Both the position numbers and the translations under genes were made by a program. Source: Thermoanaerobaculia bacterium (GTDB lineage: Bacteria; Acidobacteriota; Thermoanaerobaculia; UBA5066). Taken from it: a stretch of 64,000 nt of DNA. The notes beneath the pieces are model-generated. The model saw only the letters and a program-made list of their open reading frames with translations. It was not told where the DNA came from and did no database searches. Below are positions 20,270-54,133 of this stretch, piece after piece (within the stretch, counting starts at the first letter, position 1; each line of letters begins with the position of its first letter). The stretch spans positions 384,001-448,000 of the forward strand of contig CAVRAY010000001.1 of the NCBI GenBank assembly GCA_963719225.1, given 5' to 3'.

Positions 20270-22968
20270 TCTTCTTTCAGTGCGGCCGCGACGTCCGTCG
20301 CGGCCGCGAGGCCGGCCGGCCGTGACGCGGCCGCGAGCGTCGCGAGGAGGACGAGGCCGAGCGCCGCCGCGAGAAAGGTCCACGGCACGTGCATCGCGAT
20401 GGTCCAGCCGAACGACTGGCGATTGATCACGTTCACGAGCACGAACGACATCGCGCCGCCCGCGAGCGCCCCGAGGCCGACTCCGAGGCCGCCGATCGCG
20501 GCGGCTTCGTACCTGACCGCGCGCCTCACGCGCGCCGCCGAAGCGCCGAGGACGCGGAGGAGGCCGATCTCGCGCCGCCTCTCCAGGACGAGCGCGGTCA
20601 GCGTGTTGAAGACGCCGAGGACCGCGACAGCGAGCGCAACCGCCTCGAGCGCGTACGTGACGGCGAACGTCCGGTCGAAGATCTTGAGGACGACTCGCCG
20701 GAGCGTGGCGTTCGTCCGGACGCGGAGCGCGAACCGCGCGCGCAGAGCCGCCGCCACGCGGCGCGCGCCCTCCTCGGGCGTGATTCCGTTCCGGAGCGTC
20801 ACGGCGAGAGTCACGGCGCCCGTCAGCGACCACAGCCTCTGGAAGTGCGCGCGGTCGAGCGTGACGGTGCCACGGTCGTTGGAATAATCCGTGTAGATCC
20901 CGGCGACGCGCACCTGGACGGGCCCGCGGTCCGTGGGGAGCTCCACGAAATCGCCTATCTTCATGCGGAACTTCTCGGCGAACGGCTCCGAGATCATCGC
21001 CTCGTCCTTCGCGAGGGCTTCCGCAAGGACCGTCCGCGTATCGCGCCCGTCCACGAGAGGCAGGTTCCCGTGCTTCGCGATGAACGAGAAGAGGCCGGAG
21101 CCGATGGTGAAGGGCACACCGTCCCTCGTGGCCGAGAAAGCCAGGAAAGGATCGACCTCGTCCACGCCCGGCACGCTCCTCACGAGCTCGATCGCCTCGT
21201 CCGGGATCCTGCCGAAGGACGGTCCCGATCGTCCGCTCGCCGGCGACAGGAAGAGATCCGAGGCGAGCGTCTCTTCCACCCACGTCGAGACCGTCGTGCG
21301 GAAGGAGCCGACCATGACCGCGACCGAGACCATCATCGAAAGGGCCATCGTGAGCGCGGCGACGGCGACCGACGTGCGCGAGAGGCTGCCCGTCAGGTTC
21401 GCGCGCGCGATCCGGGCCTCGACGCCGAAGAGGCGCAGCGCGAGAGCGTCCAAACGTGCCGCCGCGAACGTCACGGCCGCGGGTGCGAGGAGAGAGACGC
21501 CTGAGACGATCAGGAACACCGAGACGAATCCGAAGAGCGGCAGGCCCTCGACGGGCCCGGGCCGCGTCGCGAGGAACGCGAGGACGAGCAGGGCGGAGCC
21601 CGCGATCGCGAGCGGACGCGTGCGTCGCCGTCGCGCGGCCTCGACGGAGCCGTGGCGCATCGTCGCCGCGGGCTCGACGGCCGCGGCCTCGAGGGCGGGA
21701 GCGAGAGCCGACAGGACGGACGTGACGACGCCGGCGGCGAACGCGAAGAGCAGCACGAGAGGCTCGAAGTGGAGCGCGGGATGCGCCGACGGCAGGTAGA
21801 GCTCGGTCGCGGTGCCGCCCACGAGAAGGAGCGCGCCCTTCGCGAGCGCCAGGCCGAGCGCCACGCCGGCCGCGCTGCCGAGGATGCCGAGGGCGAGGCC
21901 CTCGGCGAGGAACACGCCGAACACGGAGCGCTTCGAGGCCCCGAGCGCCCGGACCGTGCCGATGTCCGTGCGCCGCCTCAGGACCGAGATGGACAGCGTG
22001 TTGTAGACGAAGTACATCCCGACGAGGAGCGCGATCAGTCCGAGCGCGGACAGGTTTACCCGAAACGCGCGCACGAGGCGATCGACGGTTTCCGTGCGCC
22101 GTTCCGGGCGTCCGGCCGTCGTGCCGGGCGGCAGAGAAGCGCGGATCTCCTCCTCGAAACGCGCGCGATCGTCTTCGGAGAGACCCGGCGGCAGGACGAC
22201 GTCGATGCGGTCGAGACGGCCGACCTTCCCGAACGCCTCCTGCGCGACCGCGAGGTCCATGAACACGATAGACCCGGCAGCCGCGCGCGCAGCTCCGGTG
22301 GGGCGAAGCACGGCGGCGACGCGGAACCTTCGTTCTTTGCCATTGGTCACGAGCGGCAGGTAGTCGCCAGTATGAAGATGATTCTTTTCTGCAAATACAG
22401 ATGTGACGAGAATCGAATCCTTCTCGAAGATGGACAGGGCGTCGCTCGCTTCGCTCGCGTGCTTAGAAGGGTAATTTTGCTCCGGCGCCGCGGCGCGCTC
22501 TTTGCCCTTTTCACCTTCTAAGAAAGACTGCGATGGGTGAGCTCCACTGTAGCTCGCGTGCTCCGCCGAACCGTCCTGCGAGGGAGCAAAAGAATATTCC
22601 CGCGCTGCCCCGTCTGCGAGCGGATCGATGCCGAGCACCTCGACAACCTCGCCGTCCGCAGCTCCCGCCGCGGCCGTCTCGGTGATCGCCGGCGCGAGCG
22701 TCGCGCCCGCGCGTCGGAGCCAGGCGAGGCGCTCGAGCGTGGCCTCGGGGATGCCCGGGCCGTCGGCGAGTACGGTGATCCCGGCCTTCCCGGCGACGAA
22801 GTCCACGGTGTCGGAGAAGGACGAAAGCACCGACGCGTTCGCGAGGCGGATCGCGGCGATCGTCGCGACGCCGACGGCGATGCCCGAGACAGTGAGCAGG
22901 AACCGGAGGCGGTCTTTCGCGGCCGGCCGGAGGACGAGAGGGCCGACGAGCGCGAAGAAGCCGGTCAC
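20266..22968 (-). CDS. FtsX/MacB-like ABC permease (two-repeat, AttFG-like)
   Basis: GIAVGVA, RRRTDIGTVRALG, ERRREIGLLRVLG and INRQSFGW. Confidence 0.88.
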   Translation of the reverse strand: MTGFFALVGPLVLRPAAKDRLRFLLTVSGIAVGVATIAAIRLANASVLSSFSDTVDFVAGKAGITVLADGPGIPEATLERLAWLRRAGATLAPAITETAAAGAADGEVVEVLGIDPLADGAAREYSFAPSQDGSAEHASYSGAHPSQSFLEGEKGKERAAAPEQNYPSKHASEASDALSIFEKDSILVTSVFAEKNHLHTGDYLPLVTNGKERRFRVAAVLRPTGAARAAAGSIVFMDLAVAQEAFGKVGRLDRIDVVLPPGLSEDDRARFEEEIRASLPPGTTAGRPERRTETVDRLVRAFRVNLSALGLIALLVGMYFVYNTLSISVLRRRTDIGTVRALGASKRSVFGVFLAEGLALGILGSAAGVALGLALAKGALLLVGGTATELYLPSAHPALHFEPLVLLFAFAAGVVTSVLSALAPALEAAAVEPAATMRHGSVEAARRRRTRPLAIAGSALLVLAFLATRPGPVEGLPLFGFVSVFLIVSGVSLLAPAAVTFAAARLDALALRLFGVEARIARANLTGSLSRTSVAVAALTMALSMMVSVAVMVGSFRTTVSTWVEETLASDLFLSPASGRSGPSFGRIPDEAIELVRSVPGVDEVDPFLAFSATRDGVPFTIGSGLFSFIAKHGNLPLVDGRDTRTVLAEALAKDEAMISEPFAEKFRMKIGDFVELPTDRGPVQVRVAGIYTDYSNDRGTVTLDRAHFQRLWSLTGAVTLAVTLRNGITPEEGARRVAAALRARFALRVRTNATLRRVVLKIFDRTFAVTYALEAVALAVAVLGVFNTLTALVLERRREIGLLRVLGASAARVRRAVRYEAAAIGGLGVGLGALAGGAMSFVLVNVINRQSFGWTIAMHVPWTFLAAALGLVLLATLAAASRPAGLAAATDVAAALKEE
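22505..22525 (-). repeat. intragenic TTTCTTAGAA motif, copy A
   Basis: Minus strand reads TTTCTTAGAAGGTGAAAAGGG. A partial inverted copy CTTAGAAGGG lies at 22462-22471. Confidence 0.7.
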
Positions 22969-23654
22969 GGCTCGAGCCTTCCGTCGCGCAGGCGAAGGAC
23001 GCGCGAGGCGTGTGCCGCGGCTTCGGCGGAATGCGTCGCCATCACGACGGTGATGCCGCGCTCCGCCACGAGGCCGGAGACGAGATCGAGGACCTGCCCG
23101 CCCGTCTTCGAGTCGAGATTTCCCGTGGGCTCGTCGGCGAGGAGAAGAGCGGGCTCGTTCGCGAGCGCCCGCGCCACGGCGACGCGCTGCATCTGTCCGC
23201 CCGAGAGCTCGTACGGGTAGGCGCGCTCCTTGTCCGCGAGGCCGACGTCGAGAAGGCCGCGCGCCGCGCGCACGTCCGCGTCAGGCGGAGACACTCCCTC
23301 GAGGAGAAGCGGCAGCGCGACGTTCTCGAGCGCGGTCATCGTGGGGAGGAGATTGAAGAACTGGAACACAGTGGCCGCCGTTTTCCGCCGATACGCGTCG
23401 CGGTCGTCCTCGGACAGCGTCGCGAGGTCCTTCCCGTCCACGAGGACCCGGCCGGACGTCGGGCGGTCGAGGCCGCCGAGGAGATTCAGGAGCGTCGACT
23501 TGCCGCAACCCGATGGGCCGAGCAGCGCCGTGAAGGTGCCGGGCTCGAGCGCGAAGGAGACGCCGAGGAGCGCGTCCACGCCCGCCGCCCCGCTTCCGCC
23601 GCCGTAGGACTTCGTCACGGACTCGGCCATCACGCGGGCGCCCACGACCCTCAT
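22965..23654 (-). CDS. ABC transporter ATP-binding protein (LolD/MacB-like)
   Basis: GPSGCGKS, LSGGQMQR, LLADEPTGNLD and H-loop. Confidence 0.92.
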   Translation of the reverse strand: MRVVGARVMAESVTKSYGGGSGAAGVDALLGVSFALEPGTFTALLGPSGCGKSTLLNLLGGLDRPTSGRVLVDGKDLATLSEDDRDAYRRKTAATVFQFFNLLPTMTALENVALPLLLEGVSPPDADVRAARGLLDVGLADKERAYPYELSGGQMQRVAVARALANEPALLLADEPTGNLDSKTGGQVLDLVSGLVAERGITVVMATHSAEAAAHASRVLRLRDGRLEP

Positions 23655-23689
23655 CCTACGTATGATGCCCGCGTCGCGATGGACGCCGC

Positions 23690-24499
23690 GTGCTGAAGAA
23701 CCTCGCCGGCCTGTGGCGCCACCGCGCGCTCGCCTACGTCCTCGTCGCCCGCGAGCTGAAGGCACGTTATCGCGGCAGCGTGCTCGGGTTCTTCTGGTCG
23801 CTCCTGAATCCGCTCCTCATGCTCGCGGTCTACGCGATCGTCTTCGCCGTCATCTTCACGGGCCGCGGCCCGGAGACGTCGCCCTACGCGCTCTTTCTCT
23901 TCTCCGGCCTCCTGCCGTGGAACTGGCTCTCGTCGTCCCTGACGGACGCGGCCGCGTCGCTCACGACGCACGGCGCGCTCCTGAAGAAGATCCTCTTTCC
24001 GGCCGAGGTGCTGCCGCTCGTGGCGGTCCTCGCGCAGGGCCTCCACTTCGTCTTCGCTCTGCCGGTCCTCCTCGCCGGGCTCGTCCTCGGTGCGTTCGGG
24101 GTCTTCGGTCCGGCGATTCCCCTCGGATGGCCTCTCGTCCAGGCCGTGCCGCTCTTCGTCCTCGAGGGGGTGTTCGTCGCCGGCGTCGGCCTTTTCCTCG
24201 CCGCGCTCACGGTCCATTTCCGCGACGTGAAGGATCTCCTCGCGACGGCGCTGTCGCTCTGGTTTTTCGCGACGCCCGTCCTCTACACGCTCTCGGACAT
24301 CAAGCAGGATCGCATGCGTGCGCTCCTGAAGCTCAATCCCGCGGCGCCTCTCTTCGACGCGTGGCGCGACGCGCTCTTCTATGCCCGGTGGATCGAGCCG
24401 TCCCGGTGGGGGCTCCTCCTCGCGATCGCGCTGGTCGCGTTCTTCCTCGGATACGCGCTCTTCGACCGGCTGCGCGACTCGTACCCGGAGGCCGTGTGA
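23690..24499 (+). CDS. wzm: ABC-2 polysaccharide export permease (Wzm/TagG-like)
   Basis: RELKARYRGSVLGFFWSLLNPL, FRDV, TPVLY and LNP. Confidence 0.85.
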   Translation: MLKNLAGLWRHRALAYVLVARELKARYRGSVLGFFWSLLNPLLMLAVYAIVFAVIFTGRGPETSPYALFLFSGLLPWNWLSSSLTDAAASLTTHGALLKKILFPAEVLPLVAVLAQGLHFVFALPVLLAGLVLGAFGVFGPAIPLGWPLVQAVPLFVLEGVFVAGVGLFLAALTVHFRDVKDLLATALSLWFFATPVLYTLSDIKQDRMRALLKLNPAAPLFDAWRDALFYARWIEPSRWGLLLAIALVAFFLGYALFDRLRDSYPEAV

Positions 24500-25947
24500 A
24501 GACCGAAACGCAAGCCGCGTCCGCCGTCACGGCCGAGGGCCTGTCGAAGAGCTACCGCAAGTGGGGGAGGACGCGCGCGTTCGGGACGCTGAAGTCGGCG
24601 CTCCTCGGGCGGTCGCTGGCGGCGGCGCTCGCGCCGTCCGAGGTGGTCGCGGCGCTCTCGGACGTGTCCTTCACGGTCGCGCGCGGCGAGACCTTCGGCG
24701 TCGTCGGGCCGAACGGCTGCGGCAAGTCCACGCTGCTGAAGCTCGTCGCCGGCCTCTTCAAGCCCACTTCGGGGCGGATTTCCGTAGACGGAAAGGTCTC
24801 CGCCCTCATCGAGCTCGGCGCGGGCTTCCACCCGGAGATCTCGGGGCGCGAGAACGTCGTCATCAACGGCGTCATGCTCGGGCTCACGCGCAAGGAGATC
24901 GAGCGCAAGCTGCCCGAGATCATCGCGTTCTCGGGCCTCGAGGACTTCATCGACGAGCCCGTGAAGACGTACTCGTCGGGCATGTACGTGCGCCTCGGCT
25001 TTGCGGTGGCCGTGCACGTGGACCCGGACATCCTCGTCGTGGACGAGGTGCTCGCGGTGGGCGACGAGTCCTTCGCGCACCGCTGCCTCGACACGATCGC
25101 GGACTTCTCGCGGCGCGGCAAGACGATCTTCTTCGTGTCGCACTCGCTCGTCCTCGTGGAGGAGCTGTGCGACCGCGTGCTCTACCTTGAGAATGGCCGC
25201 GTCAAGGCGCTCGGCGACCCCAGGGAGACGCTCGCGAAATACCGCATGGACGTCGCGGCGGGGGAAGGTATGCGGCTTTCGACCGAGCACAAGAGGGATC
25301 AGGAAATTTTGCTTCGGACAAGAGAAGAGAAGATTTTCTTAGAAGGGGTAAAAGGGTCTGGGGCACCCGACGCCGGCGCGGTTGTCGAGCGAGCTGAAGC
25401 CGATTCCCCCTTCAAAGAAAATCCACCGTTTCCCGATGCTCCTCGAAAGCAGGATCTGGAACCGCCGTCGGAAAAACCTCTGGAACAGAAGATTCCTCTT
25501 CGCCGATGGGGTAACCGGGACGTGTCGATCACGGGATGCCGGCTGCTCGACTCTTCCGGCGCGGAGCGCTACGCGTTTCGCTCGGGGGAATCGCTGACAG
25601 TCGAGATTTCCGTCGAGCCGCGCGCGCCAACGTCCGACTTCGTCTTCGGCATCGGGATCTTCACTCCCGACGAGGTGTGCGTGCACGGGTGCAACACGGA
25701 GATCGACGGGTTCCTGCCGGAGCGTCTCGACGGCCCCGCGATCGTGCGCGTGACGCTGCCGCGCGCCGACCTCGGCACCGGGACGTACCTTCTGGACGTG
25801 GCGGTGCACTCCCGCCGCGAGACGCCGTACGACTACTGGCGCGGCGCGTGCCGCTTCCAGGTGGACTCGCCGGACCGCGAAGCCGGTCTCTACCGCCCCG
25901 AGCGCCGCTGGGCGTTTGCCGGCGCCGTCTGGGTGAGCTCGCGGTGA
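24496..25947 (+). CDS. wzt: polysaccharide ABC ATPase with C-terminal Wzt_C carbohydrate-binding domain
   Basis: GPNGCGKST, ELGAGFHPE, YSSGMYVRL and DEVLAVGD; C-terminal domain after a low-complexity linker. Confidence 0.88.
   Translation: MKTETQAASAVTAEGLSKSYRKWGRTRAFGTLKSALLGRSLAAALAPSEVVAALSDVSFTVARGETFGVVGPNGCGKSTLLKLVAGLFKPTSGRISVDGKVSALIELGAGFHPEISGRENVVINGVMLGLTRKEIERKLPEIIAFSGLEDFIDEPVKTYSSGMYVRLGFAVAVHVDPDILVVDEVLAVGDESFAHRCLDTIADFSRRGKTIFFVSHSLVLVEELCDRVLYLENGRVKALGDPRETLAKYRMDVAAGEGMRLSTEHKRDQEILLRTREEKIFLEGVKGSGAPDAGAVVERAEADSPFKENPPFPDAPRKQDLEPPSEKPLEQKIPLRRWGNRDVSITGCRLLDSSGAERYAFRSGESLTVEISVEPRAPTSDFVFGIGIFTPDEVCVHGCNTEIDGFLPERLDGPAIVRVTLPRADLGTGTYLLDVAVHSRRETPYDYWRGACRFQVDSPDREAGLYRPERRWAFAGAVWVSSR
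25335..25356 (+). repeat. intragenic TTTCTTAGAA motif, copy B
   Basis: TTTCTTAGAAGGGGTAAAAGGG. Confidence 0.7.
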
Positions 25948-27653
25948 TCCGGCCGGAACGCGTCGACCGGACGCTCCTCCTGCTCCTCCTTCTCGCGATC
26001 CTTCTGCTCGTGCTCGAGCCCGGCGCCGTTCCGCTCTTCGAGCCGGACGAAGGCCGCTACGCCGAGATTCCGCGCGAGATGCTCGCCACCCGCGACTTCC
26101 TGACGCCGCGCCTGAACGGCGTCCTCTACTTCGAGAAGCCGCCGCTGTACTACTGGACGGTCGCCGCGTTGATCGCGCTCCTCGGCCCGACCGAGCTCGC
26201 CGTACGCCTGCCGGGGAAGCTCGCTGCGGTGTCGATGGTCCTCCTCGCCGTGGCCTTCGCGCGGCGACGCTGGGGCACGCGAACGGGCCTGCTCGCCGGC
26301 CTGATCCTCGCGACGTCCATCCTCCTCGTCGCTCTCGCGCGCATCGCGTTGATCGACCCGATGCTCTCGGCGTCTCTGGCGGCCGCGACGTTCGCCTTCA
26401 CGGCGTTCGCGGAGGCGGACGCCGCCGGAGAGAGCCGGCGCGCCCGGCGGGCGCTCTACGTCTTTCACGCCGCCTGCGCGGCGGCGGTCCTTCTCAAGGG
26501 TCTCGTCGGGGTCGTCCTGCCGGGAGGGGCGATCGTCCTCTGGACGCTCGTCACCGGGCAGTGGCGAACGCTGCGCCGCGTCTTTTCGCCGGGGCCCCTC
26601 GTCCTCTTCGCGATCCTCGCGGTGCCGTGGCACGTCGCGATGGCCTTCCGCCATTCGGACTTCCTGCAGTTCTATTTCGTGCACGAGCACTTCCAGCGCT
26701 TCGCGACGACGGAGCACCGGCGGGCGGGTCCCCCCGCCTATTTCATTCCGGTCCTCCTCGCGGGCTTCCTTCCGTGGACGGGATTCTTCGGGCGCTTCCG
26801 GGAGGCGTGGCCGGGGTTTTCCATCAGCGGGTGGCGCACGCGCGCGACCGAGGGCTTCCTCTGGATCTGGTCGATCCTCGTCTTCGCGTTCTTCTCGGCC
26901 TCTGGGTCGAAGCTCATCCCGTACGTCCTTCCGATCTGGCCCGCCCTTTCGGTCCTTCTCGCGCTCGGCATCGAGCGCGCGCGTCAGCGGGGCGCCGAGT
27001 TCCGTGCCGACCGGCGGATCACGGCGGCGTTCTTCGGACTCCTCTTCGCGGGCGCGGCGGCGTTCGGATGGGGAGCGGGTTTTCTCGACCGCTTCGGGAA
27101 GGGTCGCACCGGACTCCTCGCGCTCGTGGCTCTTCTCGGCGGTTTCGTCCTCAACGTCTCTCCTCGATTTTTCGGCGCGAGAAAAGGGGGAGATCCCGTC
27201 CTCGCCGTGGCGGCGCCGTGGCTCGCCTTCGTGGCGGGGCTTCTCGTCGTGCTCCCTGGTGCGGCTCGCGTGATCACGCCGTGGCCCATCGTCTCGCGCG
27301 CCCGGGAGATCCTGCGGGCGGACGATCTGCTCCTGCAGAAGGGCCACTACCTCGAGGTCCTTCCGTTCTATCTCGGGCGGCTGACGCCGATCGCCACGCT
27401 GGGCTGGAGCGAGCTCGATTTCGGGCGCTCGCACCCCGGAACCAAGGCGCTTTTTCCGACCGACGAAGACTTTGCCGCGGACTGGAACGGGAGCCGCCGG
27501 GTTCTCGTCGTCGCGCACCGGGATCAGCTCGCCGGATTCGGTCGGCCGCCGCTTTCCGGGACTCCTCCCGAGGTCCTCGCGCGGGAGGCGAACGGGAAGC
27601 ACTGGCTGCTCTCGAATCGGAGGATAGGATCAGGATCCAATAGTTTGGATTAA
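25944..27653 (+). CDS. arnT: ArnT-like GT-C glycosyltransferase (Ara4N transferase family)
   Basis: PDEGRYAEIPREM, YFEKPPLYYW, LLKG, EHFQRF and SKLIPYVLP. Confidence 0.8.
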   Translation: MIRPERVDRTLLLLLLLAILLLVLEPGAVPLFEPDEGRYAEIPREMLATRDFLTPRLNGVLYFEKPPLYYWTVAALIALLGPTELAVRLPGKLAAVSMVLLAVAFARRRWGTRTGLLAGLILATSILLVALARIALIDPMLSASLAAATFAFTAFAEADAAGESRRARRALYVFHAACAAAVLLKGLVGVVLPGGAIVLWTLVTGQWRTLRRVFSPGPLVLFAILAVPWHVAMAFRHSDFLQFYFVHEHFQRFATTEHRRAGPPAYFIPVLLAGFLPWTGFFGRFREAWPGFSISGWRTRATEGFLWIWSILVFAFFSASGSKLIPYVLPIWPALSVLLALGIERARQRGAEFRADRRITAAFFGLLFAGAAAFGWGAGFLDRFGKGRTGLLALVALLGGFVLNVSPRFFGARKGGDPVLAVAAPWLAFVAGLLVVLPGAARVITPWPIVSRAREILRADDLLLQKGHYLEVLPFYLGRLTPIATLGWSELDFGRSHPGTKALFPTDEDFAADWNGSRRVLVVAHRDQLAGFGRPPLSGTPPEVLAREANGKHWLLSNRRIGSGSNSLD

Positions 27654-27732
27654 AAATCCTCCTTCGCGCCGCCTGGTCAGATTTCTCCCTTTGCCTGCAG
27701 TGCCTTACCGTCTGATAGGCTTTCACCCTCGG

Positions 27733-27748
27733 AGGCAGCGGAATTGCA
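27733..27748 (+). promoter_or_regulatory. candidate sigma54 (-24/-12) promoter
   Basis: AGGCAGCGGAATTGCA gives GG-N10-GC with TTGC, upstream of the first TonB receptor. Confidence 0.4.
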
Positions 27749-27765
27749 CCCGGTTTTGTGGTTTT

Positions 27766-27796
27766 CGTCACACCCTCGGACAAGGAGGGTGTGACG
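27766..27796. repeat. perfect 12-bp inverted repeat in the long intergenic leader
   Basis: CGTCACACCCTC-ggacaag-GAGGGTGTGACG. Confidence 0.7.
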
Positions 27797-27983
27797 TAAG
27801 CTCCAAAAAGACCTCGGAGAGCTTTGCGGAGCGGTCAAACAGGAAACCAGAAATAGAGCCTCGGGTGAGCAAAACCAAACGCGAAAGGAGAGTACGAAGG
27901 ACTTCCACAGTACTGTCGAATCTCTACATCGAGTCCTTACGACAGGATCCCATTTTCGTTTCAATTCAGGAGGTAGATTGAAT

Positions 27984-30932: not shown

Positions 30933-30961
30933 TCTTTTCTTCTTCCAAACCTCCCGGTCTC

Positions 30962-41235: not shown

Positions 41236-42266
41236 TGAGAGTCCTGATCCTCGGCGTCAACGGCTTCATCGGGAACGCCCTCACGCGCCGCATCCTCACC
41301 GGCACGGACTGGGAGGTTTTCGGCCTCGACGTCGGAAGCGACCGCATCGAGGAGTTCCTGCCCGACAAGAGGTTCCGCTTCCTCGAGGGCGACATTTCGA
41401 TCAACCGCGAGTGGATCGAATACCACGTCAAGAAGTGCGACGTCGTGCTGCCGCTCGTCGCGATCGCGACTCCCGCGACGTACGTGAAGAACCCGCTGTC
41501 CGTCTTCGAGCTGGACTTCGAGGAGAACCTCCGGATCATCAAGATGGCGGGGAAGTACGGCAAGCGCGTCGTCTTTCCGTCCACGTCCGAGGTCTACGGG
41601 ATGTGCCCGGACAAGGAATTCGACGAGGACCGCTCGCCGCTCGTCTACGGGCCTATCGCGAAGCCCCGCTGGATCTACTCGGCCTCCAAGCAGCTCCTCG
41701 ACCGCGTCATCTCCGCGATGGGCGCCGCGCAGGGGCTGAAGTACACGCTCTTCCGCCCGTTCAACTGGTACGGCCCGCACCTCGACAACGTGGACGCGCC
41801 CAAGGAAGGCTCGAGCCGCGTCCTCACGCAGTTCCTGCACAACATCCTCTACGGCGTGCCCATCAAGCTCGTGGACGGCGGCGCGCAGCGGCGATGCTTC
41901 ACGTACATCGAGGACGGCATCGACGGGCTCATGACGATCCTCGAGAACCCGCGCGGAAAAGCCGACAGCCAGATCTTCAACCTCGGGAACCCCCGGGCCG
42001 ACCTGTCGATCGACGAGCTCGCGCACGCACTCATCGACACCGTGGCGACGTATCCGAAATTCGCCGCGGCCGCGAAGAAAACGCGGATCGTGAAAGTCTC
42101 GTCGAAGGAGTACTACGGCGAGGGCTATCAGGACATCACGACGCGCGTGCCGTCGGTCGCGAAGGCGAAGAAGCTCCTCGGGTGGACGCCGAAGACGGAC
42201 TTTCCGACGGGACTCCGGAAGACGCTCGACTTCTACCTCAAAGGCCGCAAGCCTCCCGTCGTTTGA
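41235..42266 (+). CDS. arnA: UDP-glucuronate oxidase/decarboxylase (ArnA C-terminal domain)
   Basis: [53 protein letters not shown] and YQDI. Confidence 0.88.
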
Positions 42267-43279
42267 AGAAGCTCGCCCTCAAGGTCGACGTCGACACCTA
42301 CCGCGGGACGCTGGAAGGCGTGCCGCGTCTCGTGGACCTCTTCGAAAAGCACGGCGTCAAGGCGACGTTCTTCTTCTCGCTCGGACCCGACACGAGCGGC
42401 AAGGCGATCAAGCGCATCTTCCGGAAGGGCTTCGTGAAGAAGGTCCTCTCGGCGAGCCCGGCGGCGTCTTACGGCTTCCGCACGATGCTCTACGGGACGC
42501 TGCTTCCGGCGCCGGACATCGGCGGCCGCAAAGAAACCGTCGCCCGGATGCGCGAGGCCTCGGCCGCGGGACACGCCGTCGGCATCCACGCGTGGGACCA
42601 CATCGACTGGCACGACCGCCTGCCGGCGATGGCGAGGTCCGAGATCGAGGACGTCGTCGCGAAAGAACACGCGCGCTTCGCGGCGATCTTCGGGAAGCCC
42701 GCGTTGTTCCAGGCAGCTCCGGGATGGACCGCGACCCCGCTTTCCGTCGAAGTGCAGGAATCGCACGGCCTCCTCGCGACCTCGGACACGCGCGGCGGCG
42801 AGCCGTTCTTCGCGCTGCGCGCGGATGGCGTGCCGAGCAAGGTCCTCGAGATCCCTTCGACGCTGCCGACGCTGGATGAGCTCTTGGCCCTCTCGTTGCC
42901 TGGGGCCGGGACCCAGATTGAAAAGGCCTGCAAATTTCTTAGAAAGGGAATGAAGGGAGGCGCGTCGGCGGGGGGCGGCGGGGCAGAGTCTGCGGTGGCG
43001 GTGCCTGAGCAGACCGCGGCTCGAGAGCCCGTCGAAGTCCATTCGATTCACACGGAAATCGAGGGCGGCACCGCCTATTTCGCGCCCTTTACCGATTTGC
43101 TCGCCGCCTGGAGGAGCGACGGCGTGACCTTTCTTACCTTCGAAGAAATTTGCAGAACGCTGCTCCCCGCGGATACGCCTGCACGAAACGCTCGGGAGCA
43201 AATATCGATTCCTGTCAAGCGTCTCACCTTCACGATGCTCCCTGGACGCGCGCTGCCCGTCGCGACGGGAGTGGGATGA
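42263..43279 (+). CDS. arnD: Ara4FN-phosphoundecaprenol deformylase (polysaccharide deacetylase family)
   Basis: [37 protein letters not shown] and HTEIEG. Confidence 0.82.
42935..42957 (+). repeat. intragenic TTTCTTAGAA motif, copy C
   Basis: TTTCTTAGAAAGGGAATGAAGGG. Confidence 0.7.
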
Positions 43280-43745: not shown

Positions 43746-43755
43746 GACCCGTCCG

Positions 43756-46041: not shown

Positions 46042-46781
46042 CGGAAGAGCGGGTCGTTCCGCCATCCCCACTTGACGGCCTTGAACCGGGCCATGACGCC
46101 GAGGATCGAGAAGCCGTACACGCACGAGTTCCAGAAGTCGATCTGCGAGGCCTCGTCGAAGTACCGCGTCACGATGGGGACCTCGCGGATGCGCATGTTC
46201 TTCCACATGCCCGCGGCGATGATCTCCGTGTCGAAGACGAAGCCGTCCGAGAAGGCTTCGAGGTTCACGCTCTCGAGATAGCGGCGGGAATAGGCGCGGA
46301 GGCCCGAGTGGTACTCGGTGAGGTAGAGGTAGAAGGTGGCGTTCTCGACGGCAGTCAGGAAGATGTTCGCGAGGTACTTCCATTTCGGCATCCCGCCCTC
46401 GAGCGGGCGCCCCCCGAGCATCCTGCTGCCGAACATCGCGTCTTCGTCGCCTCGCGCGATGGGGCCGATCAGGTCGGGGAGGACCGAGGCGTCGTACTGG
46501 TGATCGGGGTGCACCATGACGCAGATGTCCGCGCCCCGCTGGAGCGCTGTCGCGTAACAGGTCTTCTGGTTCGCGCCGTAGCCGCGGTTCTCGGCGTGCG
46601 TCACGACGTGGAGGCCCGGAATCGCGCGCGCGACCTCGACCGTGCGGTCCTTCGAGGCGTCGTCCACGAGGATGATGTCGTCCACCCAGTCCTTCGGGAT
46701 CTCGTTCCACGCCAGGTGCAGCGTCTTCTCGGCGTTGTAAGCGGGCATCACGACGGCCACCCGCTTTCCCTGAATCGGCAT
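46038..46781 (-). CDS. GT2 glycosyltransferase (polyprenol-phosphate glycosyltransferase-like)
   Basis: MPAYNAE, VDDASKD, NRGYGANQK, HPDHQY, GSR and EYHSGLRAY. Confidence 0.88.
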   Translation of the reverse strand: MPIQGKRVAVVMPAYNAEKTLHLAWNEIPKDWVDDIILVDDASKDRTVEVARAIPGLHVVTHAENRGYGANQKTCYATALQRGADICVMVHPDHQYDASVLPDLIGPIARGDEDAMFGSRMLGGRPLEGGMPKWKYLANIFLTAVENATFYLYLTEYHSGLRAYSRRYLESVNLEAFSDGFVFDTEIIAAGMWKNMRIREVPIVTRYFDEASQIDFWNSCVYGFSILGVMARFKAVKWGWRNDPLFR

Positions 46782-46793
46782 CTCCGAGGGATT

Positions 46794-48712
46794 CTAGGGT
46801 GCGGCCGCCTCGCGCACGCGAAAGACCCGGAACCGCGGCTGGAAGCTGCCGTCGGCGCGGCGCGTCCCGGTCTTCGAATCGAGTACCCGCTCGAGAAACG
46901 GCGCCGGGTTCGGAGAATCCGACTCGTGCACCCGCCTCGCGAACATCCGCGCCGTCGGCGTGGGCGGGCGGCCGGCGGCGGCCGCGTAGGCGGGAAGGAG
47001 CGGCGCGAGGTCCGTCGTGACGAGATAGCGGCACTTCGCCGCGGAGAGGATCGCGAGAGCTTCGGCGTCGTCCGTCGCCGTGAAGAGGCGGCATTGCCGG
47101 CGCCAGCCATAGACGAACGGGTCCGCAGCGGACGGCCGCTCGGCGATCGCCGTCACGAAGTGCCCCGCGGACCAGGGAGGCATGACGCCCGGGATCGCGC
47201 CCGGAGCGGGAGGCGGCACGACCGACGGTTCCACCGGCGGCGGATCGAGAACGCGCAGCCGTGCGAAGAGGTCCAGCACGTCGTAGCCGGGTGCGTCCGC
47301 GAAGGCGCGCGCCCGCGCGAGATAGGGGAGGCCGGGCAGGACGACGAGACAGACGGCGAGGGCGATCGGCACAGCGGTACGAGCGCGCGGGGGAGCTGCC
47401 GCGGCGCGACGCGCCCAAGGAGCTCGGCGAGCGCGAGCGCGGCGAAGATCGCGAGGTAATAGACGTTGCGCTGCTGAAAGAGGGCCATCGCGAAAACGGC
47501 GGCCGCGAAGAAGGCGAGAAGGAGGCGGGCGGCGCCTCGCGGCGGCATCGGCCGCCGAAGCGACGCCCGGAGCCACACGAGCGCCGCGAGCGGCACGAGG
47601 AGGAAGCCCGGAGACACCTCGCGCACGGCGCGCTCCAAGGAGCTCCACCCCCGTATGAGCGGCTGACACTCGGCGACGAGCCGCAGAAACTCGGGCGGAT
47701 AGGAAAGGAAGCCGCCTTCCGCGAAGTCACCGGACCCCGCTCCCGCCCCTCCCTTGAAGACGTACGCCCCGCCGTGAAAGACCGAGTCGAGGACGCGCCG
47801 CGCGTTGGGCAGCGCGACCGCGAGGCCGAGGGCCGTGAGAAGCCCCCACAGCGCGCGGCGCCGGAGCGTCGGCGCGCGCGCCGCCGCGAGCGCGAGAAGC
47901 GGCACGGTGGCGCCCGCGAGGAGGAGAGGCTGGAACCAGCCGAAGGAGACGAACGAGAAAGGCATGGGCTCCGCGGGAAGGGTCGCGGCGGCCCCGAGGG
48001 CGACGAGCGCCGTGGCGACGAGGCCCGCCACGGCCGCGGCCTCGCCGAGCGCGAGCGCGGCCCACAGGAACGAGAGGCCGGCGACGAACACGGCGCCCTG
48101 CCACGTGAGGACGGCCAGGGCGATCGCGGCTCCGAAGGGAACGGCCCGCAGGAATCGCGCGTCGCCGCGGGCGGAGGCGGCCCACGCGCCGGCCGCGAGG
48201 ACGAGGAGGAGGTTCAAAGCCTCGGCCACGTGATGGTCGAAATGCCCGAAGCCTCCCCAGAGCACGGCCGCGGGGAGCGCGACGTAGGCGGCCGTCGCGA
48301 TCCGGGCGCGCCGCCGGCCGAACGAGCGCCTCGCCACGGCGAAGAGCGGCAGGATCTGGAGCGCGCCCAGGAGCGCGGGAAGGGTCGCCGCGACCGTGAG
48401 GACTTGTTCCGTCGTCGCCCCGCGTCCGAAGAGAAGGCGCGCCGCGCCGCCCGCGACGAGATCGAACGCCGGTGGCCAGATGAAGACGCCGCCTTCGGGG
48501 TGGTTCAGGTACGGATCGCGATACGGGACGCGGGGGAAGTTCCGGGCGACGGAGACGGTCCGTCTGAGGTGCCCGTAGCAGTCCGGCGACAGGAGGCGAA
48601 AGCCGCGGGAGGTCGCTGCCGGAAAGGGCGCGAGGCGCAGCGCGAGCGCGGCGAGGAACATGCACCACACGAATCGCCCGTCCCGCGAGATGCGTCCGGA
48701 GCGCGCGCTCAC
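46794..48712 (-). pseudogene. AglB/STT3-like oligosaccharyltransferase, frameshifted near 47370-47430 (or sequencing error)
   Basis: [22 protein letters not shown] and GHFDHHVAE in ORF 47153-48712. The last TM and the periplasmic domain with PPWSAGH (WWDYG-equivalent) continue in another frame to 46794. Confidence 0.7.
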
Positions 48713-48762
48713 TCCCGAGAGCGTAGCAGGGCGCCGGGCAACCCTCCCCCTACAATCGCCGG

Positions 48763-50493
48763 ATGGTCGAGGGCCGCCGGTTGAGATTCTGGGCCGCCGT
48801 GCTTCTCCTCGCCTCTCTGGGCTCGGCGCTCGTCTTCGATCACACGCGCCTCGACAGCCCGACGATGGACGAGCCGTTCCACACGCTCGCGGCGGCGGAA
48901 TACGCGATCGCGGGCACGTACTACGCGAACCTGGAGCACCCTCCCCTCGTGAAGCTCCTGTCGGGATTCGCGATCCGGGCGGCGGGAGGACGCGCGCCGA
49001 GGATGGAGGTCCCGTTCTCGATGGCGACGGCCGAGCAGCCCAGGCCGTTCAGCTTCAGCTCGCCGCTGCGTCCCGAGACGCTCTTCGCCGTCGCGCGCGC
49101 GCCGGTTCTCGCGCTGTTCTTCCTTCTCGTCGTCGTCGTCGGCGGGGCCGTGCGCTCGTGGGCAGGCGACCTCGCCGGAATCCTCGCGGCCGCGCTCGTC
49201 GCGTTCGAGCCCAATCTCCTCGCGCACGCGGGTGTCGTTCACACGGACCTCGCGGCCGCGCTGGGTTTCTTCGGGACGCTCGTTCTCGCGGTCAAGGCCC
49301 TCGAGCGCCGCTCGCTCGGCTTGTGGGCGGCGGCCGGCGCTGCTCTCGGCGCGAGCCTCGCCGCGAAGTTCTCGTGCGTCCTCCTCGTCCCGATGGTCGC
49401 GCTCCTCGCGCTGACCGGCCTCTTCCGGGAGCGTCGGGCCGCCGCCCGGGAAGGCCGCCTTCCGGATCTCGTCGCCCTCAAGGGGCTCCTTCTCGCGGGC
49501 GCGACGTCGCTCGCGGTCCTCCTCGGCTGCTACGCGATCGCCATGCGGCACATGAGCGGCGGCGAGGCCGCCAAGGCGGTGCGCCTTTTTCTCGTCACGC
49601 GGCAGGCGCCCGAGGCGACGATCGACCGGATCCTCGCGATCTCGCGGCTCGACAAGGAAGCCGGCCACTATGCGGCGGGTCTCGCGGGCATCGCCGTCCA
49701 GAACAAGACGGGCGGCGGCGTGAACACCCTCCGCGGAAAGCTCTCGGTGGACGGATTCTGGGAGTACTTCTTCGTCGCCTTCGCGGTGAAGAGCACGCTC
49801 GCCACGCTGGCGATTCTCCTGATCGCCTGCGCTGCGGGCATCGCGCGAAAGGTCCGCCCCGACCTCGTCCTGCTCACGCTCGTCCTCCCGCCGGCCTATC
49901 TCTTCCTGACCGGCATGGCGACGTCCTACAACATCGGTATCCGCCACATGCTGCCCGTGTACCCGCTCCTCCTCGCGGCAGCCGTTCTCGTTCTGTTCCG
50001 GTCTCTGTCCGCGCGCGCGGCCGCGGTCGTCCTCGCCGTTCTCGCCTCGGGGCAGGTCGTCGAGACCCTCAGCGTCCATCCGCACGAGCTCTCGTTCTTC
50101 AACGTCGCCGCGGGAGGGCCGGCGAACGGCGCGGCATGGCTGAACGACTCCAACCTGGACTGGGGACAGGACCTCGAGCGGCTCGCGCGCCGGCTCGAGG
50201 CGCGCGGCGAGGAAGGACGCACGACGATCGCGTATTTCGGCGGAGGCGACGTGCCGTACTACGCGCCAAAGGCGCGGGTGTTCATCCCGGCGCGGACACC
50301 GCTCACCCCCGGCCTCTGGGCGGTGTCCTCGTTCCTCATGTGCTGCGGGCCGGAGGCGATGGCCTTCCACGGCGATCCGGCCGCCGCCGTGGGCTTCCAG
50401 CAGCTTCGCCGAGAGATCTCCGCGCGCGGAACGCCCGTGGGTCGCGTGGGATACTCCATCGTCCTGTACGACCTGAAAGAAAAGAGCCCATGA
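48763..50493 (+). CDS. PMT/ArnT-like GT-C glycosyltransferase
   Basis: [26 protein letters not shown] and [10 protein letters not shown]. Confidence 0.8.
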
Positions 50494-51902
50494 AGCTGTC
50501 GATCGTGATGCCGGCGTACAACGAGCGCCGGACGATTCGCGAGATCCTCGCGCGGGTCAAGGCCGTCGACCTCGGAGACCTCGAGCGCGAGATCCTGATC
50601 GTGGACGACGGCTCGGAGGATGGCACGCGGGAGCTCCTCAAGGAGCTCGACGGCAAGGACGGCGTCCGCGTCCTGCTGCAGCCGCGCAACATGGGGAAGG
50701 GAGCGGCCGTCTGGGCCGGCATGCGGGCCTCGACGGGAGACCTCGTCGTCATCCAGGACGCGGACCTCGAGTACGACCCGGAGGAATACCCGGTGCTGCT
50801 CGGGCCGATTCTCGCCGGCAAGGCGGACGTCGTTTACGGATCCCGCTTCCTGGGAAGCCCTCACGGACACCGCGTCCTCTATTACTGGCATACCGTCGGA
50901 AACCGGCTGCTCACGCTCATGTCGAACCTCTTCACGGACCTGAACCTCTCCGACATGGAGACCTGCTACAAGGTCATGACGCGCGGCGTCGTGGACCGGC
51001 TCGATCTCAAATCGCAGCGTTTCGGCGTGGAGCCCGAGATCACGTGCAAGGTGGCGCGCATGCGCGCCCGGATCTTCGAGGTCCCCATCTCCTACAGCGG
51101 ACGAACTTACGAAGAGGGCAAGAAGATCGGCGCCAAGGACGCCTTCCAGGCCGTCTGGACGATTCTCAAGTACTTCCGCTGGGAGGCTCCGGACAGCGAC
51201 GTCGGAGCGATCACGCTGCGGCGGATGGGGGAGCTCTCCGTCTACAACCGCTGGCTTCACGATCGGGTCGACGGGTGGCTCGGGTCGCGTGTCCTCGAGG
51301 TCGGCTCGGGAGTCGGAAACCAGACCCGTTTCTTCGCCGACAAGGAACGGGTCATCGCCTCGGACATCGAGCCGCACTACGTTCGCGAGCTCCGCACACG
51401 GTTCGAAAAGCACGGAAACGTCCGCGTCGCCTCGTTCCGTTTTCCGCTCACCCCCCAGGACCGCGCCGATCTCGAAGCGGAGCGGATCGACTCGATCGTC
51501 TGCATGAACGTGCTCGAGCACATCGAGAACGACGCGGGAACGCTCGCGGATTTCTGCCGCGTCCTCCAGCCGGGAGGACACCTTGCGCTTCTCGTGCCCG
51601 CTCTTCCCGCCCTCTACGGCACGCTCGACGAGAACCTGCGCCACTACCGCCGCTACGAGAAGGGCGCCCTCGCGACCCTCGTGGGACACGCGGGATTCAC
51701 GGTGGAATCCGTCCGGTACCTGAACCGCCCCGGCGTCCTGGGCTGGTGGCTGAACTCGCGCGTCCTCAAGCGCCGCGTCCTTCCGAAGAGGCAGCTGGGG
51801 GCCTTCAAGTGGATCATGCCGCTGCTGGAGGCAGAGGAGAGGACGGAGCCGTCGTTCGGGATGTCCCTCCTCGTCCTCGCCCGGAAACCCCAAGCGGCGT
51901 GA
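50490..51902 (+). CDS. GT2 glycosyltransferase fused to class I SAM methyltransferase
   Basis: QDADLEYDP and DMETCYK in the N-terminal part; [18 protein letters not shown] and HYRRY in the C-terminal part. Confidence 0.88.
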
Positions 51903-54133
51903 AGCAAAAGGCGCCGGACCTGGTACCGGCTCTCGTCCTCGTGTTCGGCGCCGCGGCGCTTCGCTTCGCGCCCTTTCTGGCCGGCGGCACGCTGTACCGC
52001 CGCGACGCGGGCTTCTTCTTCGTCCCCTGGAGGCTCGTTCTCGCGAGATTCTTCCGGGCGGGCGAGGCGCCGTTCTGGAACGAGTGGATGTCGGCCGGAA
52101 GGGCCTTCGCGGCCGATCCCAACGCCGCGGTTTTCTGGCCCCTGTCGCCCCTTCTCCTCGTCGTCTCGCCGACCGTCCTCGCCCTCGCGAACGCCGCTCT
52201 CCTTCTGGGCGTCTTCTTCTTCGCGCTCCGCCGAATCGGGCTCTCGGCGACGGCGTCCGGCGCCGGGACGCTCGTCCTTCTCTTCTCGGGTGTCTTCCAG
52301 GCGCTGCCTGTTTACGCGACGACGTGCGCGGCGGCCGTTCCGCTTTCCCTAGCGCTCGTCGAGGCCCCGCGCCTTTCCGCGCGCGAGCCCGCCATCCGCC
52401 GCCGCGCCTGTGCTTTCGCGGCGCTCGCCTTCGGCCTTTCCGCGCTCGGCGGCGAGCCCGCGGTGACGCTGATGGGCGCCGCGGCCTTCGTCGCGGTCGC
52501 GATCGGCGCGGCAAAGGGATCGCGCCCGCGCGCGACGGCCGGCGGCGTCTTCGCGCTCGCCCTCGGGATCGGGATCGCCGCGATCCAGGTCCTTCCGGCG
52601 GCCCTCGAGGTGGCCCGGTCCGCTCGTGGCGCGGGGATGCGTCCCGAGCACGGCGCCCTCTTCTGGTCCGTGCGTCCGGCACGCGTCCTGACGCTCCTCG
52701 AGCCCCGCCTCACGGGAGATCCGCCGGGGGACACGGCCTCGTTCTGGGGCTCGGGCACGTTCGACGCGGGAAATCCGTACTTCGAGGACCTCGCGCTCGG
52801 CCTCGTGCCCCTCCTTTTCGCGGCGGCCGCGTGCCGCGATCGGCGCGGGCGCGCGGCGCTTCTCCTCGCGGGGTCGGGAACGGTTCTTTCCTTCGGGCGG
52901 TTCCTGCCAGGCTACTCGGTCCTCGCCGCGGCGCTCCCGGTGATCCGGTATCCGGAGAAGTGGTGGCTGCTCGTGACGCTCGCGCTCGCGGCGGCGGCGG
53001 CGGTCGGCGTCGAGGCAGTCTTTTTAGGCGAGGCGGAGGTTCGGGAATCGGCGCGAAGGATTTTGCTGAAGACCGCCGTGGGAATGGCTCTCGTCTGCGG
53101 CGCGCTGCTCGCTTTGGCGTTCGGCGCTGAAGATTTTCTTAGAAAGGGCATATGGGCTGTGGGACTGGGCGCCGGATCCACTTCTGCTGCGGCCGTGGCT
53201 TCGGCTCTTCGCCCCCACCTCATTCTAGGAACTCTTAGTCTTGTCGTCATCGCGGCACTCACATCGCTCGTCACGCACAACTGCCAGCCCGAACCCCTCT
53301 TCACCTTCGAGGAGAAGCTGCGCAGCCCGCTGCTTCTCGCCGGCATTCTCGGCGTGCTGTTCTTCACCGACGCCGCGCGGCGCGTCGCCGGAACCTGCCC
53401 CGCGGGGCCGCCGGATCTCTACCGCAAGGAGACGCCCGCGGTCGCGCTCGTCGGGAAGGAGGCCGGTGCCGGCCGTTTCTACGACGACGGTGCGGACGAT
53501 GCCCCGACCGCGGCGCGAAGGACGCGCGAGGCCGGCGGCCTCGACCTCCTTCGTCCCGTCACGGGAACGGCTTTCGGCATCCGGTACGCGGGGGAGAACG
53601 ATGTGGACCGAATGACGGCGGCCCCGTCGGTGCGGTTCGCGAGCCAGACGGCGGGCCTGGGCTGGTGGCCGGAGAAGGTCGCGCGCCTGCGCCGGCTCGG
53701 AGTTGCCATCGTCCGCACCGCGGTTTCGCCTCCCGATCCGACCGGCGTCGTCGAGCTCGGGCGCTTCGGGGGCGATCGGATCCTGCGCATCGAGGGAACG
53801 CGCGACGAGTTCGCGGTCCTGCCGGCGGGAGGCGGACGCGTGACGGTCGAGGAACGCGGCGCGAATTTCGCGCGTCTCGCCCTCCACGTCGCGCTGCCCG
53901 CCGCGATCCTTTCCGTCTCGCGGAGCTTCGATCCGAACTGGCACGCCCTCCTGGACGGGAAAGAGCTCGTCCTCCGCCCCGCGGACGGTTTTCTGACGGC
54001 CGCGGACGTGCCGCAGGGAGACCACGAGCTCGTCCTTCGGTACCGCAATCCCGCTTTCGCGGCCGGAGGGGCGCTGTCGATCGCATCGCTTCTTTTCGTC
54101 GCTCTTCTCGCACGATCTCCCGGCGGGCCATGA
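51899..54133 (+). CDS. YfhO-like multi-pass membrane protein (GT-C)
   Basis: YRRD..FFFVP, PFWNEW..G..FAADPN, GGEP, RYPEK; C-terminal [18 protein letters not shown]. Confidence 0.75.
53135..53156 (+). repeat. intragenic TTTCTTAGAA motif, copy D
   Basis: TTTCTTAGAAAGGGCATATGGG; shares the 16-mer GAAGATTTTCTTAGAA with copy B. Confidence 0.7.

Follow-up and report, generated by a model that had tools for sequence, protein, structure and literature searches.

Background

Two reports (PMC3337134, PMC3733652) describe REP and REPIN sequences as short lineage-specific repeats that occur in hundreds, mostly as inverted doublets whose variable spacers range from tens of bp to about 100 bp, and state that some REPs insert in frame in genes. 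Rickettsia palindromic elements and MITEs appear in PMC10969869 as 150-240-bp repeats inserted in frame into unrelated genes, and uptake sequences, according to PMC2817400, are written by substitution into proteins with the use of rare codons and in both orientations.

The motif analyzed here resembles REP/BIME and REPIN-RAYT systems in that inverted doublets dominate its sites (574/831). Unlike REP/REPIN, its unit has neither a hairpin, a GTAG/CGTC foot nor a folding excess; two thirds of the sites are genic, many were made by substitution, and no RAYT flanked by them was seen. As with Rickettsia elements and MITEs, unrelated genes were found to carry a common repeat inserted in frame, whereas the modules of the motif are mosaic and break at cores, form no stable palindrome and showed no target duplication at the FtsX locus, and cores also arise and persist without an element. 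Compared with uptake sequences, the motif is about tenfold sparser, uneven, paired at a distance and linked to insertions. No publications describing it were found.

Results

A 24-bp site in four genes of the window and throughout the genome

The window, i.e. the whole 64,000-nucleotide stretch analyzed, had been reported in a preliminary description to carry four copies of TTTCTTAGAA in unrelated genes. These copies (A to D) and the features around them are as follows.

20266..22968, minus strand: FtsX/MacB permease gene, host of A
22506..22529, minus strand: site A, a 24-bp profile site in the FtsX/MacB gene, core TTCTTAGAA at 22516-22524, score 32.4
22460..22471, plus strand: degenerate head-to-head partner at 64 bp from A, with a score under the profile cut-off of 12
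22544..22552, minus strand: shared-arm module CTACAGTGG, located 28 bp upstream of A
22583..22591, minus strand: outer B box TTTTGCTCC of A, 67 bp upstream of A
22450..22590, minus strand: in-frame insertion around A, exceeding the loop of the sister genus by about 42 codons (approximate bounds)
24496..25947, plus strand: wzt ABC transporter ATPase gene, host of B
25307..25315, plus strand: B box upstream of site B
25331..25354, plus strand: site B in the Wzt interdomain linker, core 25336-25344, score 36.2
25401..25424, minus strand: head-to-head partner of B, core 25411-25419, 83 bp, score 28.1, also present in orthologs
25335..25455, plus strand: module that matches the FtsX insertion of relative G054 at 86% identity across 121 bp, E 1.6e-34
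42263..43279, plus strand: polysaccharide deacetylase (ArnD-like) gene in an arn-type cluster, host of C
42931..42954, plus strand: site C, core 42936-42944, aligned with outgroup native residues
43129..43152, minus strand: head-to-head partner of C, core 43139-43147, 211 bp, translated as TFEE
43195..43202, minus strand: B box upstream of the partner of C
51899..54133, plus strand: YfhO-like membrane protein gene (weak YfhO match, E 1.5e-4), host of D
53131..53154, plus strand: site D, core 53136-53144, aligned with outgroup native residues
53213..53236, minus strand: near partner of D, core 53223-53231, 95 bp, weak, score 18.2
53296..53319, minus strand: far partner of D, core 53306-53314, 178 bp, lying in a 12-residue insertion, score 20.6

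All four copies were found again, with no further copy in the window, as were the sequence GAAGATTTTCTTAGAA common to B and D, the G-tract, short spacer and GGG that follow each copy, and the reading frames F-L-E-G (A, B) and F-L-R-K (C, D). The host genes had also been named correctly, the YfhO assignment resting on the weak match given above. The claimed collapse of codon bias is clear: GC3 per 20 codons falls from 85-100% to 35-75% at each copy. Absent from the preliminary description was that every copy has an opposite-facing partner; the one of A is degenerate here and present in full form in orthologs.

The 9-mer TTCTTAGAA occurs in 273 exact copies in the 4.75-Mb source genome, G000 (about 0.06 per kb). 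Within called genes there are 161 exact cores, versus 2-4 in five within-gene synonymous shuffles, which bears out the claim that the motif should be rare by chance. It forms the core of an asymmetric site of about 24 bp with about 830 genome matches (831 in the profile scan, score threshold 12). The profile is a quasi-palindrome with 1-3-base spacing and no GTAG/CGTC-type foot. Profile sites divide into 279 sense, 280 antisense and 272 intergenic (n=831), exact cores into 89, 67 and 108, respectively (n=264); called genes thus hold 559/831 profile sites, and intergenic DNA is nonetheless enriched. Co-orientation with the host gene, true for 4/4 window copies, is rejected as a general rule by the genome-wide sense and antisense counts. 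Of 278 TTA codons, 58 lie inside sites. An assembly chimera can be dismissed, since for a given gene the same codons carry the site in as many as 22 other genomes. A search of viral contigs with one strict 23-base pattern gave 0 exact matches, which is no proof of absence.

Most sites are arranged in head-to-head pairs

Head-to-head pairs 45-300 bp apart comprise 69% of the profile sites. There are 264 adjacent pairs of this kind (30-300 bp), versus 12 (maximum 21) in 200 random placements, and among neighbours within 600 bp 382 are convergent and 33 divergent. In other genomes, 46/68 loci have an opposite site downstream and 3/68 one upstream. The spacing shows no 10.5-bp helical phasing (p 0.11; the best of 17 periods reached p 0.016, uncorrected).

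The two arms might alternatively pair in the transcript, the resulting stem being recognised by a ribonuclease or the ribosome. In the predicted fold of the element, core does pair with core, and the cores co-vary weakly (z 3.1 for the core alone, 86.5 vs 85.3% identity, 247 pairs). Such an RNA-level signal is nevertheless extremely unlikely: no arm complementarity beyond the consensus was detected in the flanks of these pairs (z -1.8 to 1.7), one full 206-bp element folded no better than shuffles (z -0.83 as DNA, +0.44 as RNA), the Rfam search returned 0 matches, and the gradient along the chromosome and strand-specific mutation described below are properties of DNA.

Invertons were rejected, as no spacer inversion was seen in four ortholog sets and the dif-side spacers were 5 forward and 0 reverse. 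No public sequencing run contained half of the words searched; in four runs, whose contigs derive from relatives only, none of the listed joints changed strand at a site. Dips in depth at A and B, and one RNA-library contig that skips 68 bases at A, were not counted as evidence.

Persistence, turnover and in-frame insertion

Matches in YfhO orthologs use the Arg codon AGA in 23/25 cases (genome use 2.7%) and the Leu codon CTT in 19/25 (genome use 8.2%). The rare codons kept in sites across the genus are a DNA-level constraint. Partners turn over: of the YfhO orthologs with site D, 20/22 have one, at 95 bp in some and at 148-178 bp in others.

When cores were aligned with outgroup proteins, 35/63 fell on native residues and 28/63 in or at insertions (control 4.4%), and insertions of at least 10 residues lay within 20 residues of 24/63 sites versus 1.4% in the control. 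Many sites arose by substitution, at poorly conserved positions. The earlier suggestion of linker-like or inserted peptide at three of the copies holds for A and B, which lie within insertions, and fails for the cores of C and D, which align with native residues of the outgroup.

A modular repeat of about 200-240 bp is common to unrelated genes and intergenic spaces, and the ends or starts of shared modules often fall at a core. The full form is closed by inverted B boxes, part of each box being native coding sequence; the B box was defined by word counts and patterns, an EM search for an upstream box having failed to converge. These data could be explained by a non-autonomous mobile element of the MITE, REPIN or Rickettsia-element type, about 200-240 bp long and laid out as B box-arm-core, spacer and core-arm-B box, which was inserted in frame and then decayed, so that the sites are its surviving recognition sequences. 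This would account for the FtsX loop, which has 43-49 residues in other genera and is lengthened in the genus, always in frame, to as many as 115, for the G054 FtsX insert, which matches that of G000 wzt (86% identity over 121 bp) and 11 further places in G000, and for the same-strand core found within 130 bp of 17/19 strict B boxes. The 35/63 cores in aligned native codons, kinase paralogs that bear a site pair with no length change between the sites, and the FtsX insertion ends, the one locus examined, at which no target-site duplication is visible, argue against it. In addition, most spacers are unrelated (the all-against-all comparison was dominated by kinase paralogs absent from the gene calls), there is no stable hairpin, and scores are hardly higher for paired than for single sites (p 0.07). 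No autonomous partner with the same ends was present among 22 loci inspected or in one metagenome hit. The sole RAYT-type gene of G000 belongs to other repeats: GTAG-type sequences of its own flank it, its 3.4-kb locus contains no site, and the stretch in which it lies is free of sites and foreign in composition; G019 has none. A PF01797 search in G000 found nothing, and NF047646 hits in 4/5 genomes, G019 being the exception, are not flanked by a site pair. Altogether, we consider a mobile element of this kind rather unlikely.

Sites are concentrated toward dif and largely confined to one genus

The motif is present in 29/29 genomes of the genus, which belongs to the uncultured Acidobacteriota, weak in the sister genus and found once in 1/42 other genomes; no comparable other dialect was detected in 400 kb around dif of the outgroup genomes G028 and G027. 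Site density falls fourfold along the chromosome: 7.6 sites per 25 kb were counted close to dif and 1.9 close to the origin (Spearman -0.49, calculated for 163 of 190 bins and assuming a head-to-tail join of the two contigs), and this gradient was reproduced only in part in G019. It could reflect weaker selection on terminus genes. Replichore polarity, proposed for checking in the preliminary description, was not observed, with unpaired sites numbering 58 plus/65 minus and 62 plus/53 minus on the two arms; membership in the KOPS or Chi class was rejected for lack of this polarity.

Short, dispersed, terminus-biased and free of replichore polarity, the sites are similar to matS/MatP and XDS/XerD. 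The matS sites number tens and XDS a handful, whereas the present motif is asymmetric and paired, with about 830 sites in a broad gradient and no reader identified. Purely architectural sites of this type, at which a protein, perhaps XerD, sits on paired half-sites for organisation of the terminus half or SMC unloading, would leave the composition change to occupancy that shields DNA from repair and the modules to ordinary ectopic recombination. Along with the MatP/matS and XerD/XDS precedent (PMC11894783), this is consistent with the gradient centred on dif, the presence of SMC, a site within 250 bp of 16/21 dif loci of the genus and 0/9 outgroup loci, and the half-site-like core, which shares 9/11 bases with the left arm of B. 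subtilis dif (sequence from PMC3025954). XerD is encoded as well. The dif of the genus itself is canonical, common to motif-less families and located elsewhere than the motif sites, and its XerD arm matches the core at 7/11. The profile contains a single arm-like half with no second arm beyond 6 bases 3' of the core, so that a Xer/dif recombination site with two 11-bp arms around a 6-bp spacer was rejected. As the gradient is broad rather than a bounded domain, and strand-specific C loss and the fixed B-box arm are not explained by architecture itself, we judge this possibility unlikely.

A DNA uptake sequence accumulating by biased transformation would likewise be lineage-specific, occur in both orientations and be made by substitution at poorly conserved positions, and ComEC is present, in motif-less genomes too. 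Known uptake sequences reach 0.8-0.9 per kb, against about 0.06 exact cores per kb here; their even spacing of about one per kb does not agree with 273 cores in 4.75 Mb and a fourfold terminus-biased gradient. Widely spaced pairs inside genes, and insertions and shared modules that uptake sequences lack, make this origin very unlikely.

Base composition around sites

In codons identical to the outgroup, with the motif masked, four-fold GC was 0.81 within 60 bp of sites versus 0.89 beyond 200 bp. Outside the pairs, C on the site strand dropped from 50 to 36-39% (sense) and from 42 to 30-32% (antisense) in a count that takes in inserted codons; G was maintained.

Search for a reader protein

Neither a cognate transposase nor a reader protein could be identified. 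ParB, encoded beside dif, has an identical recognition helix in motif-less families; HU/IHF, SMC and ComEC are present in all 5 genomes tested, motif-less relatives included, and an apparent long IHF frame proved to be a shadow of sppA. The histone fold PF00808 occurred in 0/5 genomes, and the second type II topoisomerase is found also in the motif-less G071. A 164-residue basic protein, with Atlas hits under 0.9, was present in 17/17 genomes of a motif-less genus, and other small basic proteins were phasin, glyoxalase or without match. None of these candidates was supported as a reader.

Discussion

The best reading, which we hold tentatively and put at somewhat less than an even chance, is that paired protein-bound sites act as break-and-repair hot spots. 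Head-to-head pairs would likely be bound by a putative host protein in terminus-biased chromosome handling, a protein rather than base pairing presumably reading both arms. The bound pair would probably be broken or stalled often, with repair rewriting the surrounding DNA. Breaks or stalled forks inside the pair may be resected, exposing on each side the strand that runs 5'->3' toward the pair, and we propose that C is lost outside the pairs because resection exposes this inward-running strand. Repair templated on other copies via the shared core could copy arms and spacers in frame and regenerate the cores, and the pairs may be maintained by selection or by such repair drive. Against this reading stand the lack of 10.5-bp phasing, unlike many looped protein complexes, the expectation that a site subject to breaks is normally eroded, the absence of a reader among candidates that also exist in motif-less relatives, and the fact that no break was observed.

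Both ideas of the preliminary description survive in part, and they are not mutually exclusive. A protein site with locally altered mutation agrees with the pair geometry without arm complementarity, the rare codons, partner turnover, the terminus gradient and the synonymous GC dip. The in-frame mini-element is reflected in the modular repeat in unrelated genes and intergenic spaces; as no stable palindrome folds, the likeness to Rickettsia elements is one of behaviour only.

A further version, which we consider improbable, is a terminus-biased system that propagates itself: a host enzyme would recognise head-to-head sites, break the DNA between them and repair it from other copies. If it were true, one signal would organise the chromosome and act as a built-in mutator through which hundreds of genes, among them those of aminoacyl-tRNA synthetases, keep gaining in-frame peptide loops.

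If the reading of paired sites as break-and-repair hot spots holds, a chromosome-wide signal evolved within one genus, overriding codon habits in about 290 genes and also reshaping their proteins, and it would unite chromosome-organising sites and in-frame selfish repeats, which are usually studied apart. Its distribution, from absent through rare in the sister genus to abundant in the genus, would offer a natural series for the birth of a signal, and peptides found inserted in this lineage, such as FLEGEE, PFEEK and poly-Ser/Glu/Lys loops, would be accounted for by the motif where they might otherwise pass for protein adaptations.

Occurrence of the motif in the genome and the family

The four copies of TTTCTTAGAA in the window, together with the reading frames, flanks and GC3 dips that the preliminary description had assigned to them, were recovered as described. 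In the host genome (G000; 4.75 Mb in two contigs, C1 and C2, 97% complete and 6% contaminated), the two strands together hold 273 copies of TTCTTAGAA. Among the 4062 genes called with a purpose-built hexamer model 161 copies were counted vs 2–4 in five synonymous shuffles, in agreement with the proposed enrichment beyond codon usage. An iterated profile of the site approximates to RRRWT-TTCTTNGAA-DGKRAADRRG, with a purine tract on the 5' side. It gave 832 matches scoring at least 17 vs 126 in the reversed genome, so that perhaps one-seventh of the weaker profile matches are noise.

The motif system is real, genome-wide and lineage-specific. The 12-mer TTTCTTAGAARG was present in every one of the 29 genus genomes (27–245 copies each) and in all eight of the sister genus (1–25), as a single copy in one of 26 other family genomes, and in none of 16 genomes from two other families (including the unpublished G025). 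A 27-base consensus matched 70 loci in a species-wide collection, 69 of which are labelled Acidobacteriota, Acidobacteria or Thermoanaerobaculia, the other being a 2.9-kb contig from another phylum. In the 400 kb around dif, 113 profile matches were found in G000, none in G028 and one in G027, and these regions of G028 and G027 held no comparably over-represented word. The system is apparently new to the literature; no published description of it was found among the papers listed from a largely open-access literature. Persistence as a signal is shared with DNA uptake sequences, but the element fails defining tests of such sequences (PMC2817400), and a role in uptake is very unlikely.

Sites form head-to-head pairs

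The unit is a pair of sites. Neighbours at most 600 bp apart (profile score at least 15) comprised 382 head-to-head, 33 tail-to-tail and 153 same-strand cases; 574 of 831 sites had a head-to-head partner within 300 bp, and adjacent head-to-head pairs numbered 264 vs 12 expected. Distances start at about 45 bp, peak at 83–84 bp and tail off to about 250 bp, and no 10.5-bp phasing was found in G000. Co-orientation with the host gene, suggested by the window copies, did not hold genome-wide in G000, where sense and antisense sites are equally common, nor did the sites show replichore polarity. Inverted partners might form an RNA stem. The two arms of a pair, however, are as alike as random arms, with a slight excess in the core alone, and the full element folds no better than shuffles; this explanation is scarcely credible.

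Orthologs of the window genes

The preliminary description had asked whether the patches around the motif are insertions; two of the four window copies lie in insertions, and the cores of the other two align with native residues. In wzt (30 loci) the linker bearing the pair extends the protein to 448–512 residues, compared with 415–429 in six full-length outgroups. Both sites are kept in 16 orthologs, spaced 83 bp in ten and 95 bp in six, and the first site is duplicated in two. The FtsX loop (30 loci, 28 shown) measures 43–49 residues in seven outgroup genomes vs 42–115 within the genus, every allele being in frame. Three 42-residue alleles are probably secondary deletions, because their sequence recurs inside longer alleles. 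In the ArnD-like gene (30 loci), by contrast, both cores align to native residues, and in-frame indels place them anywhere between 142 and 214 bp apart. Site D of the YfhO-like gene (26 loci, one excluded owing to a frameshift) is likewise native: 22 of the 23 orthologs from the genus carry it, with no indel relative to two outgroups. Its rare codons are retained (the rows, picked by pattern, include a few strays), and a partner lies at 95 bp, at 148–178 bp or at both in 20 of the 22.

Insertion, local mutation and shared modules

Reciprocal best hits in 800 kb of outgroup DNA were available for 37 of 289 site-bearing genes. Of 63 sites within these alignments, 35 had cores on aligned residues and 28 lay in or at insertions (control 4.4%); insertions of at least 10 residues occurred within 20 residues of 24 sites (control 1.4%). 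With motif and flank masked (49 genes), four-fold-site GC was 0.81 up to 60 bp, 0.86 up to 120 bp and 0.89 beyond, and the drop persisted in codons identical to the outgroup. Outside pairs, C was down 11–14 points, and G unchanged, on whichever strand runs toward the pair, independently of the gene's strand (inserted codons counted too).

A second box (B box: purine tract, then TTYTGCT and CCCTC or TCGGA) precedes 47 sites by 54–85 bp, and in G000 a core on the same strand lies no more than 130 bp from 17 of 19 strict B boxes. One B box, flanked by purines, stands alone near the start of the lipocalin-like gene, with no core within 300 bp:

window 20199-20207 (+), lone B box

Ten arms, the stretches between B box and core, share an extra word 28 bp ahead of the core; their hosts are FtsX, an ABC-F ATPase, kinase linkers, other genes and three intergenic places. 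The fullest FtsX alleles (206–239 bp) read B box-arm-core-spacer-inverted core-arm-inverted B box. The FtsX allele of G054 is 86% identical to the wzt insert of G000 across 121 bp and has 11 additional matching places in G000. With 12 candidates scored per genome, it matched in 23 of 28 other genus genomes, in two of the eight sister-genus genomes and in none of the other 26, many matches starting or stopping at a core. DNA has thus been copied between unrelated loci. Spacers within G000 are mostly unrelated to each other.

Such copying might reflect a decaying non-autonomous element, like REPINs (PMC3337134; RAYT classes in PMC6006769), REP dimers and intragenic REPs (PMC3733652) or MITEs and Rickettsia elements (PMC10969869). 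In-frame insertion is common to REPINs, Rickettsia elements and the present element, but it fails defining tests of each of these systems, and no target duplication is visible at the ends of the FtsX insertion; we consider this origin doubtful.

Several other loci in G000 were observed alongside:

G000:C1:1103000-1116000 and 2197000-2209500, integron integrase-like gene and attC-like repeats (18 copies of a common 10-mer, in two arrays and one lone copy); a cassette-like stretch that recurs five times bears one motif copy
G000:C1:2293328-2319755, tandem Ser/Thr kinase cluster, with further paralogs elsewhere
G000:C1:2113423-2116416 and 2438276-2441080, putative synthetase genes with five sites each, which we take to be isoleucyl- and alanyl-tRNA synthetase from sequence resemblance

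These kinases have a 101-bp pair written into the N-lobe (about 15 copies), with poly-Ser inserts after it, and in the sister genus the shared arm also occurs in their linker.

Position relative to dif

The chromosomal landmarks of G000 are:

C2:326 kb, dnaA
C1:2,037,568, canonical dif, close to the GC-skew maximum

Up to 400 kb from dif there were 7.6 sites per 25 kb, and at distances above 2 Mb the density had dropped to 1.9 (Spearman -0.49 over 163 of 190 bins, the 27 excluded being compositionally foreign, and a head-to-tail contig join inferred; -0.45 for C1 alone). Among the first 100 of the 167 matches in G019, density was about 63–67 per Mb on its contig C1 and on the 700 kb of its C2 that carry dif, and roughly 29 per Mb in the remainder. 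This supports the terminus gradient only partially, because dif and origin genes are 0.73 Mb apart there. A site lies within 250 bp of dif in 16 of 21 genus loci vs none of nine outgroup loci (G025 included), weak support for a link since the dif gap is the sole sizeable intergenic space in those loci. The core matches 9 of 11 bases of the left arm of B. subtilis dif (PMC3025954, our source for dif sequences) and 7 of 11 of the XerD arm of the G000 dif, a possible lead only. The element shares with matS its persistence as a signal but differs from it in defining traits (matS and XDS from PMC11894783), and a reading as purely architectural sites is unlikely.

A second parA-parB operon (G000:C1:2037865-2039524) directly adjoins dif in the genus and in eight of nine outgroup loci (L061-L090; G025 among the outgroups), its ParB having a recognition helix unlike that of the origin ParB. 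The 16-bp palindrome AAACACG-NN-CGTGTTT, with six G000 copies, two within 40 kb of dnaA, is possibly a second parS-like site. The site-free stretch G000:C2:746000-871796, likely contamination or a misjoin, contains a second smpB (at 775 kb of C2) and ends in 70 kb of deviating composition and codon use, where a RAYT with GTAG-type repeats is found.

A possible mechanism

No protein recognising the sites was identified among the candidates checked (ParB beside dif, HU/IHF, SMC, ComEC, a second topoisomerase, a basic protein). The second type II topoisomerase pair (ParC/ParE-like; G000:C1:1029222-1031546 and 3740723-3742639) is present in three family genomes tested and absent from two of other families. 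Cleavage of BIME-2 by gyrase and a 130-bp motif are described in PMC6379681. The basic protein (L292, G000:C1:3836045-3836539; 164 residues, family-wide, AT-hook-like tail) matched no Pfam family and is possibly an undescribed nucleoid protein.

Geometry without complementarity, codon-level constraint and turnover of partners lead us to infer a protein that would require two facing sites. A break between such sites, once resected, leaves the inward-running strand single-stranded, and repeated break repair marks DNA by loss of C from exposed strands, clustered indels, duplicated sites and sequence captured from other copies. Breaks between paired sites, if repaired repeatedly, would produce the C loss, indels, duplicated sites and captured sequence. 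Given this match and the two-site protein, we favour, tentatively and over a non-autonomous element, architectural sites, uptake sequences or an RNA stem, that the pairs may be docking sites for a terminus-biased chromosome-handling protein, which would double as repair hot spots.
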